Source of the DNA: an uncultured Alphaproteobacteria bacterium
GTDB lineage: Bacteria > Pseudomonadota > Alphaproteobacteria > Rhizobiales > Hyphomicrobiaceae
Direction: 5' to 3'
Assembly (NCBI GenBank): GCA_963825625.1
Contig: CAWGUF010000019.1
Location: forward strand, 135,534-199,533
DNA: 64,000 nucleotides
A model generated the notes under the pieces. That model was not told where the DNA came from. It searched no databases and worked only from the letters and a program-made list of their open reading frames with translations. The position numbers and the translations under genes are program-made. Of the stretch, positions 1,561 through 63,213 are shown one piece after another. How positions within the stretch are numbered: position 1 is the stretch's first letter; the number at the start of each line of letters is the position of its first letter.

Positions 1561-1983
1561 ATGGCCATCGAGCAAACGTTCTCAATTATCAAGCCGGATG
1601 CGACGGCCCGCAATCTGACTGGGCAGATCAATGCCGTGATCGAGAAGGCTGGACTTCGGGTCGTGGCGCAGAAGCGGGTCCGGTGGACACGTGCTCAGGC
1701 GGCTAAATTCTACGAAGAGCATAAGGCGCGCCCGTTCTATGGCGAATTGTGCGAGTTCATGACCTCGGGCCCGATTGTTCTCCAGGTGTTGGAGGGCGAG
1801 GACGCGATTGCCAAGTACCGACAGGTGATGGGTGCCACCGATCCGGCCAAGGCGGACGAGGGCACGATCCGCAAGCTGTTCGCCAAGAGCGTGGGTGAGA
1901 ACTCGGTGCATGGGTCCGACAGCCCAGCTTCGGCCGAGCGTGAAATTGCGCTCAACTTCCGGCTCGATGAGATCGTGGGCTGA
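1561..1983 (+). CDS. ndk: nucleoside diphosphate kinase
   Basis: 140-aa ORF. It starts [13 protein letters not shown] and contains the NSVHGSDS active-site histidine motif. Full-length similarity to Ndk. Confidence 0.95.
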
Positions 1984-2107
1984 GATGAAATGAGAGAGAA
2001 TGGAGGCAGCCGCCATTTTCGGCATTGCAAGGGCCAGCAACCTTGCACTGCATGAAAAGTGGTGGCTGTCCCCATTTTTCCGTTCCGATTTCTGGTTGGA
2101 GCATTCC

Positions 2108-2611
2108 ATGATCACACCCGACTATGTGCGCACCATGGCCCGCTACAATCGGTGGCAGAACAACTCGCTCTACCGCGAGGCCGACAAGTTGACCGAGGCG
2201 CAGCGCAGCGAGAACCGCGGCGCATTCTTCGGCTCGGTGCACGCCACCTTGAGCCACATCCTGTTCGGCGATCAGATCTGGATGCACCGGCTCACCGGCT
2301 CTCCAGCGCCAACTGCCACCACGATCAAAGACAGCGTGGCGATGGTGCAGGACTGGTCCGACCTCAAAACGCAGCGCACGGCGTTTGACGGGCTGGTGAT
2401 GGCCTGGGCCGATAAGCTCGAGCCCGCCGTGCTGGAAGGCGAGCTGACATGGATGTCGGCGGCGCTGAATTGGCAGTTCACGCAGCCGCGGTGGATGCTC
2501 GTCACCCACATGTTCAATCACGCCACGCACCACCGGGGGCAGGTGCACTGCATGCTGACCGGCTTCGGGCTGAAGCCTGACGACACCGACATCCCCTTTA
2601 TGCCGAATTAA
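2108..2611 (+). CDS. DinB/DinB_2-family (YfiT-like) putative metal-dependent hydrolase
   Basis: ORF 2000..2611, with the internal Met at 2108 (MITPDYVRTMARYNRWQNNSLY...HATHHRGQ) giving the usual ~170 aa. The upstream 2000-2107 carries palindromic elements rather than coding-looking sequence. Confidence 0.75.
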   Translation: MITPDYVRTMARYNRWQNNSLYREADKLTEAQRSENRGAFFGSVHATLSHILFGDQIWMHRLTGSPAPTATTIKDSVAMVQDWSDLKTQRTAFDGLVMAWADKLEPAVLEGELTWMSAALNWQFTQPRWMLVTHMFNHATHHRGQVHCMLTGFGLKPDDTDIPFMPN

Positions 2612-5547: not shown

Positions 5548-6837
5548 ATGGAATGCGGCTCGGGTGAGTGGGCTTGTGTGGTTCTAAGCTTACTAGAAAA
5601 GCATGGGGTGGAGGCATCTCACGCGCTTGGTTGGCTGCCTAGCGTGGAGCTTCACGTTAGAGAAAACATACAGGCATTGATTGGCCTGCTTGGTCTATCA
5701 TTTGGTATCTATAAATGGTGGTATTTTCGTGATCGCGCCCTTCATCAGCGGCTTAAGGCCTATCTCAGCGAGCAGGATGCGCGCCTGAAAGAGGCGAGGT
5801 CGTATACGCTTGAGGCGATTAACCGGCCAGGAGCGAAGCGTCGGTTTGCCGAACCGCTTTTCGCCGTGGAGCCATTGCGCAAAGTGCTTCATAAGAAGGG
5901 TTGGAATTCCATTTTGAGCGCGAATACGCTTGAAACAGGTGCCGAACGCCTGATTGAGCAGGCTCTGCAAGGTGTCGAGGACCGGCTTGCAACGTCTCAG
6001 AACCAACTTGCGAGTTTTCGAGTGCAGCAAGCGAGTGCGCATTTACTCAAGGGCGCGATTGCGGCCGCGCGAGCTTCAAACATGCGAGATAGCGCACAAG
6101 CGTTCGCGTTGGATGATCGGGCCTTGAATGCATTTCGGACAGTGCAACTTGTTCCGGGATATGAACGTGATGTCGATGCGAAAGAGTTCGAGGCTCACCA
6201 GTTGCGAAAGCTGGGGCATCTTGCATTGGCGAAAGCTGCTTATTTGAAAACAGAAGAGTTTGCGGGTTTTTTGACCGATCAGCGTTCACGGGACTTGACA
6301 ACTGCTCGTTGCCGGCGCTGGCGCGCTAGTATTGAGCAGCAAGAAGCTATAGAGAGGTATGCTCGAGGCCAGCAAATTGGACGTGGGAGTCATAGAGCTC
6401 AGCAGTTGCTTAGAGGCGACGAAGCTGGTCAGGTTTTAGGTGCACTAATGTTGCGCAAACCGTATGAGCCGTTTGGCGGTTGGGATGCAATCGACCAAGG
6501 AGACTACCACTATTTTGCAGCGTTTGTGAGCGATAATTTGGGCTTTAATCTCCAAAGAGACGGAAGTCTCAATGACGCCGTTACTGAATACAAGCGAGTA
6601 TTGGAGAATACGCCGAGAAAATTATTCGGGTCCGAAACCAACAGGCGTCTGCGGGCTGCAGCTCATGCAGGTCTGGATCGCGCGCGAGCGGCTCAGAATA
6701 AAAGGCAGTTTGACGCCGCTTGGCTTCTGGCGCCATCACAGCCAGCGCAGGCCCATGCCCACGACGTAGGCCAGTCCAGCGGCGAGCAGGCCATTGACGA
6801 AGCTGCGGAGCAGGATGGCGTTGACGGCGCCCGATAG
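5548..6837 (+). CDS. hypothetical membrane-anchored alpha-helical protein encoded on a low-GC insertion; C-terminal end uncertain
   Basis: ATG 5548 sits 7 nt after a GGAGGG RBS. The product has one predicted TM helix (IQALIGLLGLSFGIYKWWYF) followed by ~370 aa of helical, Ala/Arg/Gln/Glu-rich sequence with no motif I recognise. The DNA at 5470-6725 is visibly AT-richer than its flanks. The frame has no stop until 6837, where it runs antisense through the neighbouring gene. Confidence 0.5.
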   Translation: MECGSGEWACVVLSLLEKHGVEASHALGWLPSVELHVRENIQALIGLLGLSFGIYKWWYFRDRALHQRLKAYLSEQDARLKEARSYTLEAINRPGAKRRFAEPLFAVEPLRKVLHKKGWNSILSANTLETGAERLIEQALQGVEDRLATSQNQLASFRVQQASAHLLKGAIAAARASNMRDSAQAFALDDRALNAFRTVQLVPGYERDVDAKEFEAHQLRKLGHLALAKAAYLKTEEFAGFLTDQRSRDLTTARCRRWRASIEQQEAIERYARGQQIGRGSHRAQQLLRGDEAGQVLGALMLRKPYEPFGGWDAIDQGDYHYFAAFVSDNLGFNLQRDGSLNDAVTEYKRVLENTPRKLFGSETNRRLRAAAHAGLDRARAAQNKRQFDAAWLLAPSQPAQAHAHDVGQSSGEQAIDEAAEQDGVDGAR

Positions 6838-6984
6838 TCCGAGATCGCGGCCGCGCTCGTAAAGCGGCGCGTGCTGGGCATACGAGATCGAGGCGAGCGC
6901 TATAGCGGCGGCGGCGACGGCCCACGGCGGCACGCCCGCAAAGCCTGCGAGAGAGGCGCCAAGTACTGCCAGATAGGCGAGCAT
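6736..6984 (-). CDS. small hydrophobic (2-3 TM) membrane protein
   Basis: 82-aa ORF with native GC content and hydrophobic segments (LAYLAVLGASLAGFAGV..., LLAAGLAYVVGMGL). Confidence 0.45.
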   Translation of the reverse strand: MLAYLAVLGASLAGFAGVPPWAVAAAAIALASISYAQHAPLYERGRDLGLSGAVNAILLRSFVNGLLAAGLAYVVGMGLRWL

Positions 6985-7090
6985 GGTTGTGTCTCCGAGA
7001 CCGCCACGCCCGCACCCCCTGCCAAGCGGCCGCGCAAGTTATGCCCGGATTCGGTTGCGGATGGGAGCGCGATCCCCAGGAATTACCAGC

Positions 7091-7115
7091 CCAGCGACCG
7101 CGCCGCGCTGGTTTT
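7091..7115 (+). terminator. hairpin plus T-tract (CCAGCG-N9-CGCTGG-TTTT)
   Basis: Perfect 6-bp inverted repeat followed by TTTT. It lies immediately upstream of the repeat array. Confidence 0.3.
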
Positions 7116-7120
7116 GGCAC

Positions 7121-7243
7121 GCTCCGGGCAACAGCCCGACGCGGTTTTTTGTTTCGCTCCGGGCAACAGCCCGACGCGTCTTTGTTCCGCTCCGGGCAAC
7201 AGCCCGACGCTGTCTTAGCGCGCTCCGGGCAACAGCCCGACGC
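7121..7243. repeat. four tandem direct repeats of the 22-bp unit GCTCCGGGCAACAGCCCGACGC, with 11-13 bp T-rich spacers (period 33-35 bp)
   Basis: Copies at 7121-7142, 7156-7177, 7189-7210 and 7222-7243, identical over 22 bp. Each can form a CGGGC/GCCCG hairpin with loop AACA. The array is intergenic, ~70-190 bp upstream of the acyltransferase gene. Confidence 0.85.
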
Positions 7244-7310
7244 TTGGTGGGCATGATTGCTGCAGCGGGGGGTGAGAGAAACCCAGGCTCCTCCAGTTGA
7301 CGTGGCAACA

Positions 7311-8456
7311 ATGTTCAGAATCGGACCATTCCGCAGCTCAAATGCCCCGGCGCAGCGTCGAGATGTTTCAATTCGCGACACCGATACCGGGCGGCGCAGG
7401 CGTGAAGGCCGGCTCGACTGGTTCGATTATGCCAAGGGTATCTGCATCATCCTGGTGGTGATGCTGCACTCCACGATCGGCACCGGCGAGGCCTACCGGG
7501 ACTGGGGGCTGGCGCCGCAGGGCTTCATGCATACGGTGGTGGCCTATGCCAAGCCGTTCCGCATGCCGGATTTCTTCATGCTGTCTGGTCTGTTTCTGTC
7601 CTATGCGATCGGCCGTGGCTGGCTGCACTATCTCGACAAGAAGCTGGTGCATTTCGCCTATTTCTATCTGCTGTGGACGACGATCCAGGTGGTGGTGAGA
7701 ACCGGCGCGACGAGCGGGCTGGAACCTGCCGGACTGTCGGCGCAACTGGTGGATGCGCTGGTGAACCCCTATCCGACGCTGTGGTTCATCTACGTGCTGC
7801 CGCTATTCTTCATCCTGACCAAGGCGATGCACGGCACAGTGCCGGGCTGGCTGATGCTGGCCGGCGCCGCGCTGCTGCAGATCCTGCCGGTGCATACCGG
7901 GTGGAAGGCGATCGACAGCATGGGCGCCCACTATTACGTCTACTTCCTGGCCGGCTATCTGCTCGCGCCGCGGATCTTCGCGTTGGCGCGCTGGGCGGAG
8001 GAGAACAGCGGCCGGGCTCTGGCGATGATCGCCGGCTGGGCCGTGCTGAACGGCATTCTGGTCTTCACTCCTAGCCCCATCGAGGGCTGGACGTCGGTGG
8101 CGGCGCTGCCGGTCGTTTCGCTGGCGCTGGGCGGTCTGGGTGCGGTGGCGATCATCATGATCGCCAGCGTGATGGCCAAGGCCGACGTGCTGGGCATCAT
8201 CCGATATTGCGGCAAACATTCGCTGGTACTCTACGTCTCGTTCACGATTCCGATGGCAACGACCCGGGTGCTGCTGCTGAAGACGGGTCTTGTCGCGGAT
8301 ACGGGGCTGGCTTCCGTGATCGTGTGGCTGGCGGCGCTGGCGGGGCCGCTGGTGCTGTACCTGATGGTGCGGTCGACGCCGCTGCGCTTCCTCTATGAGC
8401 GCCCGGACTGGCTGGTGCTGCCGTATCGCAGGTCGGCCACGGCGCAGGCCACCTGA
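7311..8456 (+). CDS. acyltransferase-3 family integral membrane protein (OafA/ExoZ-like)
   Basis: [20 protein letters not shown], the N-terminal motif of acyltransferase family 3, with about 10 predicted TM segments. ORF 7257..8456; start chosen at Met19. Confidence 0.8.
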
Positions 8457-8565
8457 GGACCGTCGGCAGCGCCGGGGCCCCAGCCGCAAAGACGCACCGC
8501 GGCGAAAACGTGTTGTGAACGCCGCGGGCCGCCTTGAGCGGTGCGGGTTGTCGCGCCATATTCGG

Positions 8566-11344
8566 GCCATGGCACGTGCTCCGAAATCGTCCGCCGCAGG
8601 TAAAAAGCCGCGTCCCTCGCGTGGCAAGTCCGGGAAGCCGCTGGCGCCGCCCGCGGAGACGGCCGCTGGCACGCCCGGTTTCGGCGAGGCGCCGCAGTCA
8701 TATTTTGTGCCCGGCGCCCCCCCCGCGGGCGATCCCAGCGCATCCGGCCGGCGCGCCGCAGGCGTGTCGGATGCGCCAAGCAAGACTCTCCCGGCCTTGC
8801 GCAACCAGGCGCTGACGCCGTCGTCGGATACATTCAGTGTCACGGCGGGGCTGCACGCGCTGCTCGCCCGGCCCGAGGAGCGGTCCACAGCCGCGCGCGA
8901 TCTGCTGGCGCGGCAGCCGATGATGGCCAGTCATCCGATCGTGGCCGGAACGGCGATGGAGTTCGTGCCGCACAGGCCAACCCGGCCCGAGAAATCGGAA
9001 GGCGGCATCCGGTTCGAGTTCGTCTCGGAGTTCGAGCCAAAGGGCGACCAGCCGCATGCGATCGCCGAGCTGGTGGCAGGTGTGCAGGCGCAGGAGCGGA
9101 CGCAGGTGCTGCTCGGCGTCACCGGCTCCGGCAAGACGTTCACGATGGCCAAGGTGATCGAGGCGACGCAGCGACCGGCGCTGATTCTGGCGCCGAACAA
9201 GACGCTGGCAGCGCAGCTCTACGGCGAGTTCAAGAGCTTCTTTCCGAACAATGCGGTCGAGTATTTCGTCTCCTACTACGACTACTACCAGCCCGAGGCC
9301 TACGTGCCGCGCACCGACACCTACATCGAGAAGGAATCCTCGATCAACGAGCAGATCGACCGTATGCGCCATGCCGCGACGCGTGCGCTGCTGGAGCGTG
9401 ACGACGTCATCATCGTGGCGTCGGTGTCGTGCATCTACGGTATCGGCTCGGTGGAGACCTATACGGCGATGACGTTCACGGTGCAGGTCGGCGACCAGAT
9501 ATCGCAACGTCAGCTGCTGGCCGATCTGGTGGCGCTGCACTATCGCCGCAACGACGGCAATTTCCATCGCGGCACGTTCCGCGTGCGCGGCGATACGATC
9601 GAATTGTACCCGGCCCACTTGGAGGATCGCGCCTGGCGCTTCTCGATGTTCGGGGACGAGATCGAGTCCATCACCGAATTCGATCCGCTGACGGGGCAGA
9701 AGAGCGACGAGCTGAAGCTGGTGAAGGTCTATTCCAACTCGCACTACGTGACGCCGAAGCCGACGCTGCAGCAGGCCATCCGACAGATCAAGGAAGAGCT
9801 GAAGCAGCGCCTCGACGAGCTTTACGCGAACGGCAAGCTCTTGGAGGCGCAGCGGCTGGAGCAGCGCACGATGTTCGACATGGAGATGATGGAGGCGACG
9901 GGCTCGTGCGCGGGGATCGAGAACTACTCGCGCTATCTCACCGGCCGCAAACCCGGCGAGCCGCCGCCGACGTTGTTCGAGTATCTACCCGACAACGCGA
10001 TCGTGTTCGCGGACGAAAGCCACGTCACCGTGCCGCAAATCGGCGGCATGTTCCGCGGCGACTTCCGGCGCAAGGCGACGCTGGCGGAGTACGGTTTCCG
10101 GCTACCGTCGTGCATGGACAATCGCCCGCTGCGGTTCGAGGAGTGGGATGCGATGCGGCCGCAGTCGGTTGCCGTATCGGCAACGCCGGGCGGCTGGGAG
10201 CTGGAGCAGACGGGGGGCGTGTTCGCCGAGCAGGTGATCCGGCCGACCGGGTTGATCGATCCGGAGGTGATCATCCGGCCGGCGACGAGCCAGGTCGACG
10301 ATCTGCTGGACGAGGTGCGCAAGGTTGCGAAGAAGGGCTACCGCACGCTGGTCACGACGCTGACCAAGCGCATGGCGGAAGACCTCACCGAGTACATGCA
10401 CGAGAACGGCGTACGGGTGCGCTACATGCACTCGGACGTGGAGACGCTGGAGCGGATCGAGATCATCCGCGATCTGCGACTGGGAGCATTCGATGTGCTG
10501 ATCGGGATCAATCTGCTGCGCGAGGGGCTCGACATTCCCGAGTGCGCGTCTGGTGGCTATACTCGATGCGGATAAGGAAGGTTTCCTGCGCTCGGAGACG
10601 TCGCTGGTGCAGACCATCGGGCGGGCGGCGCGCAATGTCGACGGTCGCGTCATTCTTTATGCTGACGGCATGACCGGGTCGATGGAGCGGGCGATAGCCG
10701 AGACCGACCGGCGGCGCGAAAAGCAGGTGGCCTGGAACGAGGCGAACGGTATCACCCCACAGAGCGTGCGCCGTTCGATCGGCGACATCATGGATTCGAT
10801 GTACGAGCGCGACCATGTGATCGTTGATGCCGGTGTCGCGGCCGAGGCCGGTACGGCGCTGGTCGGCCACAACCTGGGGGCGGTGATCGAGGATCTCGAG
10901 AAGAAGATGCGCGAGGCTGCGGCCGATCTGGAGTTCGAGACCGCCGCCCGGTTGCGCGACGAGGTCAAGCGCTTGCGCGAGACCGAGCTGGCGGTTGCCG
11001 ACGATCCGCTGGCGCGGGAGCTTGCCGTCGCCCCGCCGCGCGCTGCGACCTCCCGGCCTCCGAGCCGGGATCATGCGGGCGCGCGCAGCGCGCCGGTCAG
11101 GACTGCGGCAGGCTCAGGGATGGGCTCTGGGAAGGGCGCGCGCGAGGCGCAAGCAAAGAGGCCGCACAAACCGGGGCTCGATGAGATGACGGTCGGGCGG
11201 ACGGAGGTGCCGGCAGGCCGCGAACTGTCGACGCGGCCGCTGCCCAAACCGACGAAGACGGTCGATGTCGAGGACGGCATGGCGACCGTGCAGAAGGGCC
11301 CCCGTCGCGGCCGGGCAAAGAAGACGGGGCGGCCGGGGGCGTAA
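8566..11344 (+). pseudogene. uvrB: excinuclease ABC subunit B, with the reading frame interrupted once (apparent +1 insertion near 10541-10552)
   Basis: ORF 8395..10575 carries the N-terminal Ala/Pro/Lys-rich extension and UvrB helicase motifs ([24 protein letters not shown]) up to [15 protein letters not shown] 10553..11344 continues exactly with the canonical [16 protein letters not shown]...TIGRAARN and the UVR domain ([17 protein letters not shown]). The two pieces are in different frames. Confidence 0.85.
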
Positions 11345-32944: not shown

Positions 32945-33199
32945 GTCTTGTTCCTTCTCGTGGCCGGGTAATTCGCTGAAGCCAAACTAAGCCACTAGGC
33001 TATTTCCGCTGCGTACTGCCAGAGCGAGGAAATGGCGTAAAAACTTCCTCAGCGTATCAGTTGAAGCAGGTGGTCGCATCGCAAGACCGTCTGCTCCGGT
33101 TTCTAAATAGGACGGAAATTATTTAATTTTCGTAGCCATTTTAATTAGTTGATATGCAATTCCACAATTTTGGATCTGTCGGAGCGGCCAAGGCCAAAA

Positions 33200-34189
33200 C
33201 TAATTCGGTATGCGTTGTACCAGATCCGAGAGGCTGGAACTGGGCAACGGCTTGCGCAATGTGCCGTCGGCTACCGCTTCGGCCATCGTGCGTTCGAGCC
33301 CAATCATGCGGTCAGGATCGAGCATCGGCTTGGGAAAGAATTGGTCGCGCAGACGCCTGGCGCGTTCGAGCGGCATGCGGCGCCAATCGGCATAGAGCTT
33401 GAGCGCGCGCGGATCGGCGTACATTGCGTCGATCGTCTGTCGCCAGCCGCGCATGAAACGCGTGAGGGGGTCGCGGCGGGTTGCGTTCATTTGCTGAGAG
33501 GTAATGTTCACGCGCAAGGTGATGTCCGCGAAACTCGAATCGCTACCTTGAGCGAATATGCGTATTTCCGAGTTCTCCAGATGCTCCAGGCCGAACGGCG
33601 GGGCAGCCCATCCGATGTCGATCTGGCCACTGAGGACCTGGGACAAGGTCGGTGATGGCCAGCCGGTTGCCACGGGGCGTGCCTTCAGGCTCTTCTCCCG
33701 GATGAATGCCTTGACCACGGATCTGGTGCAGCAGTCGGTGGAATATGCGATCGTGCGACGGTCGGTATCGGTCCAGGCCCGGATCGGGCTGGACGCGCGT
33801 ACGTACCAATAGAGGTCGTGGGCGCCGGTGGCCTGACCGGCGATGATTTGGACGGGTGCTGAGGAGAGAGCGGCGTCCAACACATCGACGACGTCAGCGG
33901 CGATGCCGACATCCGCGGCGTTGGTCACGATCGCATTGACGGCATCGCGGGAGCCCCAGACGTAGTTTATCTCGAGCTCGATGCCGTGGCGTTTCATGAT
34001 GCCAAGCCGCTGCGCGAGTTCCACCACGGCGCCGTCCCAGGTTCCGCGTCTCGTTGCCGATACCCGCAAACGGTCCTGGGCGAGAGACGGCAGGGCGACG
34101 GCTGCAAGGCCGGCAGCGAGTAGCACAAGTGCTGCTATCCGGCCTGTTGTCCGTCGAGGCGGGCTGTCGAGTATGGTCATACAACGCAT
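33200..34189 (-). CDS. periplasmic substrate-binding protein of the NMT1/SsuA/TauA-like ABC transporter family
   Basis: Signal peptide (IAALVLLAAGLAAVALPSLAQD); ~300 aa mature protein with the SBP type-2 fold pattern. Confidence 0.65.
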   Translation of the reverse strand: MRCMTILDSPPRRTTGRIAALVLLAAGLAAVALPSLAQDRLRVSATRRGTWDGAVVELAQRLGIMKRHGIELEINYVWGSRDAVNAIVTNAADVGIAADVVDVLDAALSSAPVQIIAGQATGAHDLYWYVRASSPIRAWTDTDRRTIAYSTDCCTRSVVKAFIREKSLKARPVATGWPSPTLSQVLSGQIDIGWAAPPFGLEHLENSEIRIFAQGSDSSFADITLRVNITSQQMNATRRDPLTRFMRGWRQTIDAMYADPRALKLYADWRRMPLERARRLRDQFFPKPMLDPDRMIGLERTMAEAVADGTLRKPLPSSSLSDLVQRIPN

Positions 34190-54874: not shown

Positions 54875-56152
54875 ATGCCACTGGAAACCACACCGGCGCC
54901 CGGGCCTCGGTTGCGCGAATTGCCCGAGATCACGGTCGAGACGAACTCTGCCGAATACCTGGCTCACGCATCGCGCCAGGCGCTGCTCGAATACGACGAC
55001 TTTCCGCTGCTGGTGGATGTCGATGCGCATCTGCAGGAAGGGCGGTTCTGGCACGAGATCATCGAGCTCATCGACGACAAGGTGCTGCGCCACGCCGGCC
55101 AGGAAATGATCGCGCTGGGGAACCGGGCGGCGCTGACCAACGTGACGCCAGGCCTGCTCTACCAGTCGATGTCCGGCCGGGTGCCGCACCAGGTGGGCCC
55201 GCGCGAGAAGGTCGACGACCCGGCCACAGCGGGGCATCCGTTCGTGCAGATCGTCAGGCGCTCGATCGATGCCATGGGCATCGATTATCAGATGATTTTC
55301 CCGACGATCATGCTGAGCCTCGGCATGAATGCTGCAGAGAACCACGAGAGCGGCCTGGCGCGTGCCTACAGCCGCTGGCTGGCGGAGGTGGTGCTGCCGG
55401 AGGACGAGCGGATCCTGGGACTGGCCTATCTGCCGTTCAACGATCCGGAGGAGTGCGAGCGGATTGTGGCGAAGTATGCCGGTGTAGAGCGGATGGTCGG
55501 CTTCTCGATCTGCGCGGTGCGATACAGCCCGGTGCACCACAACAAGTATATGCGCCTCTACCGGATGATCGAGGAGAGCGGCAAGGCGCTGGTGTTTCAT
55601 GCCGGTCCTTACTGGCAGGACGAGTCGTTCAAGCAGCTCAATCGGTTCATCGGCATGCACGCACTGTCGTTCGTGCACTACAATCTCATCCACATGACCA
55701 ATTGGCTGCTCAATGCGCTGCCGGAGCGGTTCCCCAAGCTCAATGTGGTGTGGGTGGAAAGCGGGCTGGCGTGGATTCCGTTCCTGATGCAGCGTCTCGA
55801 CCATGAGGCCATGCTGCGGCAGAACGAGTGCCCCGGGCTGAAGCGGCGGCCGTCGGAGTACATGCGGGAGATGTACTACACCTCGCAACCAATGGAGCAG
55901 ACCGATCTGAAACTGCTGCAGGGCACCTTGGAGGCGATGAACGCATCGACGCAGCTGCTCTACGCGTCAGACTGGCCACATTGGGATTTCGATCCGCCGA
56001 GCTCGATCACACGGCTGCCGTTCCTGTCGACGCAGGACAAGCACAATATTCTCGGGCTCAACGCTGCGCGTGCGTTCGGGCTGCCGACCAAGCGCCTCCG
56101 GCCGCGCGCTGCCGACGTGCTGGCGCGGCGCGAGAAGGAGCTGGCACGTTGA
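54875..56152 (+). CDS. amidohydrolase-2 (ACMSD-like, PF04909-type) metal-dependent hydrolase
   Basis: His/Asp metal ligands in the characteristic order (DVDAHL..., ...HAGP..., ASDWPHWD), over 425 aa. Confidence 0.8.
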   Translation: MPLETTPAPGPRLRELPEITVETNSAEYLAHASRQALLEYDDFPLLVDVDAHLQEGRFWHEIIELIDDKVLRHAGQEMIALGNRAALTNVTPGLLYQSMSGRVPHQVGPREKVDDPATAGHPFVQIVRRSIDAMGIDYQMIFPTIMLSLGMNAAENHESGLARAYSRWLAEVVLPEDERILGLAYLPFNDPEECERIVAKYAGVERMVGFSICAVRYSPVHHNKYMRLYRMIEESGKALVFHAGPYWQDESFKQLNRFIGMHALSFVHYNLIHMTNWLLNALPERFPKLNVVWVESGLAWIPFLMQRLDHEAMLRQNECPGLKRRPSEYMREMYYTSQPMEQTDLKLLQGTLEAMNASTQLLYASDWPHWDFDPPSSITRLPFLSTQDKHNILGLNAARAFGLPTKRLRPRAADVLARREKELAR

Positions 56153-56448
56153 GCGATCAGCCGACGTCGCTGCGCCCGGAAGTGAACGGCTTCGTTGCGC
56201 TTGCGGAAGCGGCACGAGACACGCCCGAGGATACCACTCTGCTCACGGACGAGGAGCTGATGGCGGCAATGACGGCCGCCGTCAGGCTCTACGCCGCGCG
56301 GGCGGAGGCGCTGGAACGGTTCGCACCGCCGATCGACAAGTCGAAGGTGATGCCGACGGAGGCTCTCAGGGCCATCTCGGAGATGATCCGCACCATCGAC
56401 GTCAACATGTTCGATGTCTCGATGTGGCATGCGCGACAGGGCGGCTGA
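56149..56448 (+). CDS. small hypothetical protein (99 aa), probably translationally coupled to the amidohydrolase gene
   Basis: This is the C-terminal part of listed ORF 55828..56448. TTG 56149 overlaps the amidohydrolase TGA (cgTTGAgc); the alternative start is GTG 56182. GC-rich third codon positions throughout. The stop TGA is embedded in the palindromic element. Confidence 0.4.
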   Translation: MSDQPTSLRPEVNGFVALAEAARDTPEDTTLLTDEELMAAMTAAVRLYAARAEALERFAPPIDKSKVMPTEALRAISEMIRTIDVNMFDVSMWHARQGG

Positions 56449-56470
56449 AAATGGGGACAGCCCCATTTTC
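56447..56470. promoter_or_regulatory. perfect 24-bp palindrome GAAAATGGGGACAGCCCCATTTTC (copy 1)
   Basis: 9-bp arms AAAATGGGG / CCCCATTTT around the loop ACAG, flanked by G...C. It begins at the stop codon of the small ORF. It could equally be a bidirectional terminator, as an A-tract and a T-tract flank a GC stem. Confidence 0.7.
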
Positions 56471-56504
56471 GTCGGCTGTGGGATGCGCGTGCTGATTTGA
56501 ACTG

Positions 56505-56528
56505 GAAAATGGAGCTGTCCCCATTTTC
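56505..56528. promoter_or_regulatory. second copy of the palindromic element (GAAAATGGAGCTGTCCCCATTTTC)
   Basis: Same arms with one mismatch and the loop inverted (CTGT). It is 58 bp from copy 1 and ends 21 nt before the kynA ATG (a GGGAGG RBS lies in between). Confidence 0.7.
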
Positions 56529-56549
56529 GCGTTTTCGGGAGGCGATGCC

Positions 56550-57383
56550 ATGAGCGACGCCTATGATCCGGCCCGGGATGGCGCGCAGATGTCGTCCTCG
56601 GGCGGCATGAGCTACGGCGATTATCTCCATCTCGATGCGGTGCTCTCGGCGCAGCATCCGCGCAGTGCCGCGCACGACGAGATGCTGTTCATCATCCAGC
56701 ATCAGACCAGCGAGCTGTGGATGCGGCTGACGCTTCACGAGGTGGATGCGGCGCGCCAGACATTGCGAGAGGAGAATTTCCGGCCGGCGTTCAAGATGCT
56801 GACCCGTGTCGCGCGCATCTTCGACCAGCTCAACCTGAGCTGGAACGTGCTGCGTACGATGACGCCGAGCGAGTACACGCAATTCCGCGACCAGCTTGGT
56901 ACGTCGTCCGGCTTCCAGTCCCATCAGTACCGGCTGATCGAGTACGCTCTGGGCAATCGCAACACGGCGATGCTCAGGATCCACGAGCACCGGCCGGATC
57001 ATCACCGGCTGCTGACGGACGAGCTGGCGCGGCCGTCGCTTTATCACGTCGCCCTCGATGCCCTGGCCCGCGAGATGGGCCTGACGTTCGATCCGGCCGT
57101 CTATCGGCTGGATGGTCCGCACGTGCCGGATGAGGCTGTCCGGCAGGCCTGGACGCGGGTGTATCAGGATCCGCATACGCATTGGAACCTCTATGAGCTG
57201 GCCGAGAAGCTGGTCGATCTGGAGGACTATTTCCGCCGTTGGCGCTTCAACCACGTGACCACGGTGGAGCGCATCATCGGTTTCAAGCGCGGCACCGGCG
57301 GCACCAGCGGCGTGCAGTATCTGCGCAAGATGCTGGAAGTCGAGTTGTTCCCCGAGTTGTGGCAGCTGCGCGGGAGCCTGTGA
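56550..57383 (+). CDS. kynA: tryptophan 2,3-dioxygenase
   Basis: 277 aa with the TDO family pattern ([16 protein letters not shown]..., [16 protein letters not shown], haem-ligand region [17 protein letters not shown]). Confidence 0.9.
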
Positions 57384-63137: not shown

Positions 63138-63213
63138 AGGGCGGTTAGCTCAGCGGTAGAGCACACGCTTCACACGCGTGGGGTCACAGGTTCAATCCCT
63201 GTACCGCCCACCA
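63138..63213 (+). tRNA. tRNA-Val (anticodon CAC)
   Basis: Hand-folded cloverleaf. Acceptor stem GGGCGGT/ACCGCCC; D arm GCTC-AGCGGTAGA-GAGC; anticodon stem CACGC/GCGTG with loop TTCACAC; T arm ACAGG-TTCAATC-CCTGT; discriminator A and an encoded CCA. Confidence 0.85.

Follow-up and report, generated by a model that had tools for sequence, protein, structure and literature searches.

The ndk gene and the DinB-family gene downstream of it are separated by an 85-nt inverted-repeat element, here designated E1, in which a degenerate left arm and a well-preserved right arm flank a spacer with a hairpin of its own (Table 1). A second, 82-nt member of the same family, designated E2, is placed between a small ORF and kynA (56550-57383). 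Throughout this report, the window is the entire 64-kb stretch of DNA that was analyzed, and positions are given in its coordinates unless another contig is named.

Table 1. Positions of the two elements, their parts and the genes next to E1 in the window.
Feature	Position	Strand	Observations
ndk (context)	1561..1983	+	Pfam NDK, E 5.5e-54
E1, complete inverted-repeat (doublet) element, 85 nt	1996..2080		R1 match 1995-2080, 42.6 bits, E about 2e-9; single long hairpin
E1 left arm, degenerate, GAGAATGGAGGCAGCCGCCATTTTC	1996..2020		pairs with right arm; aligns to the better-preserved left arm of L062
E1 spacer, own hairpin, GCATTGCAAGG ... CCTTGCACTGC	2022..2051		inverted repeat I1
E1 right arm, well preserved, GAAAAGTGGTGGCTGTCCCCATTTTTC	2054..2080		arm-profile match 2054-2081, E 3.4e-6; has the exact 14-mer of E2
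DinB-family gene, start placed at 2108	2108..2611	+	Pfam DinB, E 4.6e-24, aligned from residue 6
E2, second family member, 82 nt	56447..56528		R1 match 56446-56529, 56.6 and 53.1 bits on the two strands, E about 2e-13 for the former
E2 left arm, GAAAATGGGGACAGCCCCATTTTC	56447..56470		24-nt palindrome GAAAATGGGG-ACAG-CCCCATTTTC; perfectly complementary 10-nt stems, ACAG center; arm-profile match 56445-56472, E 1.7e-5
E2 right arm, GAAAATGGAGCTGTCCCCATTTTC	56505..56528		24-nt palindrome GAAAATGGAG-CTGT-CCCCATTTTC; inverted relative to left arm, CTGT center; arm-profile match 56504-56530, E 1e-5

A preliminary description of this DNA had reported two degenerate copies of one palindrome after ndk, namely GAATGGAGGCAGCCGCCATTTTCGG at 1998-2022 and GAAAAGTGGTGGCTGTCCCCATTTTTCC at 2054-2081. 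Both strings are present in the window (the second, as quoted, extends one base more, to 2082), and they lie 15-98 nt past the ndk stop codon (1981-1983) and within the mechanically called ORF 2000..2611, as had been claimed. However, they are not separate sites. The two strings are inverted arms of one hairpin that pair with each other, and because of this mutual pairing and of a covariance match to the whole doublet at 1995-2080, we treat them as a single element. Similarly, the expectation that copies would occur in pairs 45-60 bp apart captured the paired build, but what it took for two independent sites is a single doublet. The original observation is therefore confirmed and sharpened to one element rather than two.

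The region from 1996 to 2080 is predicted to fold as one hairpin of about -51 to -60 kcal/mol (z = -5.8 versus shuffled sequences), and a 131-nt stretch containing E1 yields -60.3 kcal/mol with the same z score. The inverted repeat I1 in the spacer has 11-nt arms that are 91% complementary and 8 nt apart. When the left arm (1998-2022) is compared alone to the arm profile described below, its match is not significant (E 20). The stem of E1 ends with ...CCCC and is followed by AUUUUUCC, in which an A precedes the U run, and part of this run pairs with the A-rich stretch upstream.

E2 belongs to a slightly shorter subtype than E1. Its two palindromes form one unit in opposite orientations, and this unit folds as a long hairpin (z = -5.1) whose stem also ends with ...CCCC, followed by AUUUUCGC, with part of the U run again paired to the A-rich stretch upstream. 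The first bases of the left arm overlap the TGA of the small ORF (55828..56448). This ORF has no Pfam match and overlaps the end of an amidohydrolase gene (54875-56152) in another frame, and the real gene behind it is probably short, with about 90 codons.

The kinship between the two loci, which had been proposed from shared half-sites, is upheld both by a common 14-mer, GCTGTCCCCATTTT, and by the family model, which recovers the two loci. Exact copies of the 14-mer are located at 2065 (+), 56448 (-) and 56514 (+) and nowhere else in the window. By chance, 0.3 occurrences are expected when up to two mismatches are allowed, and a count of three was not attained in any of 100 shuffles. No sequence is shared by the two spacers, each about 35 nt in length.

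Two models were used to search for family members. The arm profile was derived from 115 non-redundant metagenomic arms and included no sequence from the window, and it yields only the three matches in the window that are listed in Table 1. The second model, R1, is a covariance model that describes the doublet as a whole; 43 metagenomic elements, and nothing else, went into it, and it was run without filters over the 64 kb. After E2 and E1, the next score is 9.6 bits. These scores place E1 and E2 in one family and show the window to have exactly two recognizable copies. A covariance search for paired copies, which had been put forward as a check, thus recovers the E1 and E2 loci and nothing else, and the relationship between the sequences downstream of ndk and those upstream of kynA is significant under a model built without them.

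No Rfam 15 family matches E1 or E2 at the gathering threshold, and permissive scans with E1 and six other family loci gave just sub-threshold matches to microRNA precursors and plastid 3′ UTR hairpins. The sole gathering-level Rfam match in the window is a tRNA gene at 63139-63210 (+) (RF00005, 68.8 bits). Elsewhere in the window, which has a G+C content of 63.5%, a strikingly AT-rich intergenic stretch (…TTTCTAAATAGGACGGAAATTATTTAATTTTCGTAGCCATTTTAATTAGTTGATATGCAATTCCACAATTTTGG…) is located at 32945-33200 between two minus-strand ORFs.

An internal start for the DinB-family gene at 2108 had also been suggested, and the protein comparisons agree with this position. Among 120 listed homologues, most are 165-170 aa in length and all but a few (up to 182 aa) measure 160-175 aa, which favors the start at 2108. 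These homologues cover 95-100% of the 167-aa product that begins there. The 36-aa upstream extension (the codons from 2000 to 2107) matches no family. Based on the homologue lengths, the position of the Pfam DinB alignment and the unmatched extension, we interpret the longer ORF (2000..2611) as a read-through of the repeat. The gain for annotation is a DinB-family start set at 2108 and a spurious 36-codon N-terminal extension that is explained by the repeat. Named homologues are from MAGs labeled Hyphomicrobiales, Hyphomicrobiaceae or Pseudomonadota, with 61-64% identity.

The ndk-dinB spacer could be compared among relatives. An element is present at the same spot in L001 and L003, which have an identical Ndk, and in L062, whose DinB is 93% identical and whose element scores 51.5 bits with R1. 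In contrast, relatives with DinB proteins of 62-71% identity have ndk-dinB gaps of 25-95 nt and lack the element. The gap is 25 nt in L063 (71% identical DinB), 30 nt in the P0005 contig (69%), 55 nt in L126 and L127 (67%), and 95 nt in L124 (65%), where it is filled by an unrelated repeat. R1 has no match in those of the element-free relatives that have readable DNA. Because the distant relatives are without the element while the 93% relative carries it at the same place, we conclude that E1 is a lineage-specific insertion, for which no excision or transposition event was seen directly and the empty sites are too diverged to map the exact boundaries.

The copies in the window and in L062 have not diverged evenly. 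The 3′ 20 nt of the right arm (GGTGGCTGTCCCCATTTTTC, 2061-2080) are identical, whereas about one quarter of the left-arm positions differ and most of the spacer has changed. Such uneven divergence is consistent with an old, decaying copy in which one arm is the exception. The corresponding empty-site and synteny comparison for E2 did not show conserved synteny, and the one kynA relative compared (78% identical) has another gene upstream. The kynA gene of the window is closest to that of Rhodobacteraceae, also at 78%.

Two contigs that carry ndk deserve further mention. The 95-nt spacer of L124 (1406-1500) consists of an unrelated palindrome of heptamer repeats, (GTGAGTG)n ... (CACTCAC/CACTACT)n, and therefore the same intercistronic spot has gained a different hairpin repeat in another lineage. 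The low-coverage contig L002, which has an identical Ndk, carries at 434-520 one left arm and the start of an L062-like spacer (…CCATTTTCGTCACTGCGACGGGCAGC), followed by unrelated coding-like DNA. Either the DNA was rearranged with a breakpoint within the element, or the assembly is chimeric at the hairpin.

To view the family more broadly, a two-arm pattern derived from the window was used to scan public metagenome contigs. The scan yielded 57 loci versus about two expected, a number that we estimated from the pattern length, and GGGA precedes CAGC in 54 of the 57 although the pattern does not require it. The arm consensus is (G/A)AAAATGGGGACAGC-nCC-wwTTTT, which can also be written (G/A)AAAATGGGGACAGCgcCCwwTTTT. 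Each arm is a short imperfect palindrome, and the two arms are mutually inverted, as is evident from their ACAG and CTGT centers. The spacer differs from copy to copy, such that the family alignment is without conserved spacer columns.

Just inside the invariant core is a 6-mer that has 22 variants between lineages. Arm complementarity at this 6-mer is 93% within an element, compared to 56% with shuffled partners (maximum 64% in 1000 shuffles). Moreover, double-sided changes are found at 6 of the 15 consensus stem pairs, and one of these pairs is GC in 19 cases, UA in 13, CG in 6 and AU in 2. These data show that complementarity between the arms is maintained while their sequence varies. Additional arrangements include solo arms, tandem arrays (with five arms in L099) and nested arms (L088 and L092). 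Among about 55 non-redundant elements, whose exact ends are uncertain by a few bases, no flanking direct repeats indicative of target-site duplication were found.

The suggestion that the palindromes belong to a dispersed, REP-like family that occurs in pairs is borne out by the 57 metagenome loci and by further copies on many contigs, but the family is not small, given that its members span several phyla. Many contigs carry several copies in different intergenic regions, such as four within 4.7 kb of L089, and the neighbors are ordinary chromosomal genes, including carB, topA and genes for acyl-CoA dehydrogenases and hydrolases. Two copies in L070 likewise reside among ordinary acyl-CoA metabolism genes. 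We considered whether these two could be the ends of a 3.7-kb transposon and rejected this idea, as genes for acyl-CoA dehydrogenase, enoyl-CoA hydratase and a biotin carrier occupy the interval. In L070, L086 and L120, the DNA between arm pairs contains no transposase gene.

Taxa were assigned from the proteins that these contigs encode, by way of clusters at 90% identity. By this approach, the loci with a G+C content of 41% derive from Ca. Desantisbacteria, in which there is about one element per 1.3 kb and nearly every intergenic region is occupied. L092 was assigned to Vicinamibacterales (Acidobacteriota) and L116 to Ca. Ratteibacteria. The same 14-nt core is therefore present in at least four phyla when the Alphaproteobacteria of the window are included.

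One contig from Ca. Desantisbacteria, L064, carries a 788-aa YfhO-family ORF (6642-9008) that runs in frame through an element at 7334-7410 (peptide ...GKWGQGKWGKWGQRPIFSSKNRALSPFSRALSPFS...) and takes its final 14 codons and stop codon from a solo arm at about 8975. The insertion falls within the region matched by Pfam YfhO (residues 13-447). This ORF, which shows the same kind of repeat read-through as the one at the DinB-family gene, may reflect an in-frame copy inside a gene, or else a chance fusion of two genes. In-frame intragenic repeat copies have been described for the RPEs of Rickettsia.

Other collections yielded little. A scan of a genome collection with GAAAATGGNGNNNNCNCCATTTTC, which is too narrow a query, gave 58 single scattered matches, none with an ACAG center or a partner arm. 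A full-element query against the PLSDB plasmids found noise in the spacer only and not the family, and the family is essentially absent from the IMG/VR viral contigs, where the one match is in a giant-virus MAG and is probably due to chance. A literature text search for the core sequence returned unrelated primer matches only, and the core is absent from two survey papers on REPs. The family is apparently uncatalogued, and this negative literature result is weak evidence that it is undescribed.

Given these characteristics, we consider it probable that E1 is a copy of a non-autonomous, hairpin-forming dispersed repeat, with a build like that of REP doublets (REPINs), that inserted into the ndk-dinB spacer. 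The element entered this short intercistronic spacer in a recent ancestor of the lineage and is now decaying, with its left arm diverged and its right arm intact. Copies may be made in trans by an enzyme that recognizes the arm or the hairpin. The most likely candidate for such an enzyme would be a single-strand HUH/Y1, RAYT-like transposase, because target-site duplications are missing, the ends form hairpins and the spacers are unconserved.

The insertion might also have local effects. A transcript that spans ndk and dinB would contain a hairpin of about -50 kcal/mol, with an A-rich stretch on one side and a U run on the other, and this structure could attenuate read-through into dinB or protect the 3′ end of ndk. 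Likewise, the transcript that spans the small ORF and kynA would carry a strong hairpin with an A-rich stretch and a U run, and attenuation or 3′-end protection might occur there as well. Most likely, the element is tolerated rather than required.

The closest known systems are REPINs, BIME-like REP doublets that a Y1/HUH transposase, RAYT, mobilizes. REPINs are 89-bp doublets of inverted REPs that form a hairpin, with non-identical but structured spacers and flanking A/T runs (PMC3337134), and REP dimers have spacers of 20-100 bp and occasional intragenic copies (PMC3733652). The family described herein shares many of these features. Two imperfect palindromes are inverted with their center bases setting the orientation, and the whole 82-85-nt unit forms one hairpin. 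The spacer of about 35 nt varies among copies and yet is structured, as seen with the 11-bp hairpin in E1. Further similarities are the extragenic location after stop codons with flanking A and T runs, the existence of arms on their own, of tandem arrays and, occasionally, of in-frame copies inside genes, and the lack of observed target-site duplication.

There are also distinctions from REPINs. The two described REP superfamilies are defined by a GTAG or a CGTC tag (PMC3733652), whereas the arm consensus has neither; CGTC follows three left arms (E2, L062 and L002) but is not found in the family generally. No RAYT gene flanked by these arms was found in the window and about 120 loci. The window has two copies in the 64 kb that represent the only part of this genome read, compared to tens to hundreds of REPINs per genome. 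REPIN/RAYT systems have been described as lineage-specific and inherited vertically together with the RAYT, in contrast to the single core that occurs here in at least four phyla. Because the tags are lacking, no RAYT was found beside the arms in the DNA searched and the core is common to several phyla, we do not file the family as a member of the REPINs.

A partner transposase was sought by tblastn with two Y1 probes, one an approximate sequence of E. coli RayT and the other a genuine sequence of Y1_Tnp. The window and about 120 loci that were searched, a sample far too small to exclude such a partner, contain one Y1_Tnp gene, in L085 (1077-1664, Pfam E 2.4e-15). We rejected this gene as the partner, as the palindrome that flanks it, GGGTCTGACCC, is different from the arms of E1 and E2. 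The region itself (L085:960-1700) comprises a 195-aa Y1_Tnp (IS200-like) gene between mtnA-like and thiL-like genes, with a short palindrome, GGGTCAGACCC / GGGTCTGACCC, on both flanks accompanied by ACATAA-type sequences. A RAYT accompanied by a REP of its own would be expected to look like this, and the pair has no relation to the E1/E2 family.

Two other types of mobile DNA were evaluated and set aside. MITEs derived from DDE-type IS elements (e.g., Correia/NEMIS, ERIC and RUP) are similarly short, non-coding, bounded by terminal inverted repeats, dispersed in intergenic regions, able to form a long hairpin in mRNA, and polymorphic between relatives. However, the elements examined herein have no target-site duplication, their interior differs in every copy, and each terminal repeat is itself palindromic. 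A classical MITE was rejected on the absence of both a target duplication and a conserved interior. To our knowledge there is no parent IS with these ends, and none with ends of the E1/E2 type was found in this analysis. The attC sites of integrons have outer core sites, RYYYAAC / GTTRRRY, that flank an imperfect palindrome, and they reside in a cassette array beside an integrase. An attC site was rejected given that the outer ends here are GAAAATGG / CCATTTTC and the neighbors are ordinary chromosomal genes.

The foremost alternative is that the element is an intrinsic, bidirectional transcription terminator that is kept by selection, in which case a useful module would have been copied around and mobility would be secondary. 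Although we judge this improbable, some features are expected of such a terminator. Like Rho-independent terminators that act in both directions, the elements have a GC-rich stem flanked on each strand by runs of A and U and are located downstream of genes. In the consensus, the stem (GGGGACAGC.../...GCTGTCCCC) has AAAAT upstream and ATTTT(T) downstream and is symmetric on both strands. However, the U run of the window copies is partly paired and, in E1, starts only after an A, and a consensus terminator scan called neither E1 nor E2. Furthermore, it is the sequence, and not the shape alone, that is conserved across phyla.

A crude call of gene context gave 26 tandem, 7 convergent and 2 divergent arrangements, and both of the divergent cases proved to be miscalls on inspection. 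The copies therefore sit downstream of genes, where terminators are expected, and the presence of a copy in almost every intergenic region of the Ca. Desantisbacteria contigs is also compatible with termination. In contrast, both window copies lie immediately ahead of a start codon, in spacers that look operonic. The next co-directional start is 27 nt from the end of E1 and 21 nt from the end of E2, and no promoter-like site was found in either interval. The ndk-dinB spacers of 25-55 nt in three element-free relatives and 95 nt in a fourth indicate an operon, in which a strong terminator would silence dinB. The copy that is in frame inside the YfhO-like ORF is likewise difficult to reconcile with termination.

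Selection at the level of RNA was also considered. For E1 and E2 alone, the sense strand folds 6-10 kcal/mol better than the antisense strand and has more G.U pairs. However, over 24 oriented elements there are 29 G.U pairs in the sense and 28 in the antisense direction, and so we have dropped the claim of RNA-level selection, of which this family-wide comparison gives no sign. Because the next starts are close, no promoter-like site was found and the spacers are short in three of the four element-free relatives, the elements are unlikely to serve primarily as strong terminators. Activity as a terminator or attenuator is nevertheless plausible, and the A/T runs that flank REPINs have been interpreted as co-option for attenuation (PMC3337134).

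Another possibility, which we regard as very improbable, is that the core acts like the DNA uptake signals of Neisseria (DUS) or Haemophilus (USS). Such signals accumulate throughout the genome, often as inverted pairs that double as terminators, and they are specific to one bacterial family. A short invariant core with AT-rich flanks, inverted pairs, solo arms, one in-frame intragenic copy and a density of about one per 1.3 kb in the Ca. Desantisbacteria contigs would all suit this explanation. However, the core is found in at least four phyla rather than in one family, the variable bases beside it are complementary between arms, which a linear signal would not need, tandem and nested arm arrays exist, and the 64-kb window contains just two copies. 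The least credible alternative is a role as operators, with a dimeric transcription factor binding the palindromes and controlling the DinB-family and kynurenine-pathway genes together: two palindromic sites with common half-sites (GAAAATGG/CCATTTTC) do lie 20-100 nt upstream of each of the two starts. However, the same sequence is found at very high density in unrelated phyla, where the genes on either side are also unrelated. It is missing from the orthologous ndk-dinB spacers and degenerate at the left site of E1, and conserved synteny upstream of kynA could not be demonstrated with the one relative compared (78% identical).

It is possible, although we lean slightly against so wide a claim, that the window copies belong to an undescribed REP-doublet-like family without GTAG or CGTC tags, in which one 14-nt core (AAAATGGGGACAGC) is found in Alphaproteobacteria, Acidobacteriota (Vicinamibacterales), Ca. 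Desantisbacteria and Ca. Ratteibacteria, and which fills almost every intergenic region in some genomes. If so, the repeat would have spread horizontally with its mobilizing enzyme, or it would be recognized by a host factor that is conserved across phyla. Among hosts, density varies between two per 64 kb and one per 1.3 kb. Such a family would be suitable for addressing three questions: how these repeats move between hosts, which enzyme copies them, and whether they are co-opted as attenuators inside operons.

We view the family as a modestly interesting, apparently uncatalogued variant of REP doublets with an unusually broad host range. This breadth does not make the copy between ndk and dinB functionally important. 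E1 looks old and decaying, and it is an ordinary, probably neutral repeat insertion.

A different palindrome, G(A/G)C-GAAAATGGGGAGCTCCCCATTTTC-G(T/C)C, was observed in 8 of the 58 matches from the genome-collection scan (L009, L024, L025, L028, L030, L044, L047 and L053), with L024 carrying a two-base variant of the GAAAATGGGGAGCTCCCCATTTTC core. The palindrome is followed by ATTATGGTGAG in L024, L028, L047 and L053 and by a truncated ATTC in L044, and in L028 the reverse complement of the ATTATGGTGAG flank also precedes it. The hosts are Clostridium, Desulfosporosinus, Desulfobulbaceae, Desulforhopalus, Dehalococcoidales and Haloplasmataceae, and this palindrome appears to be a second cross-phylum repeat.
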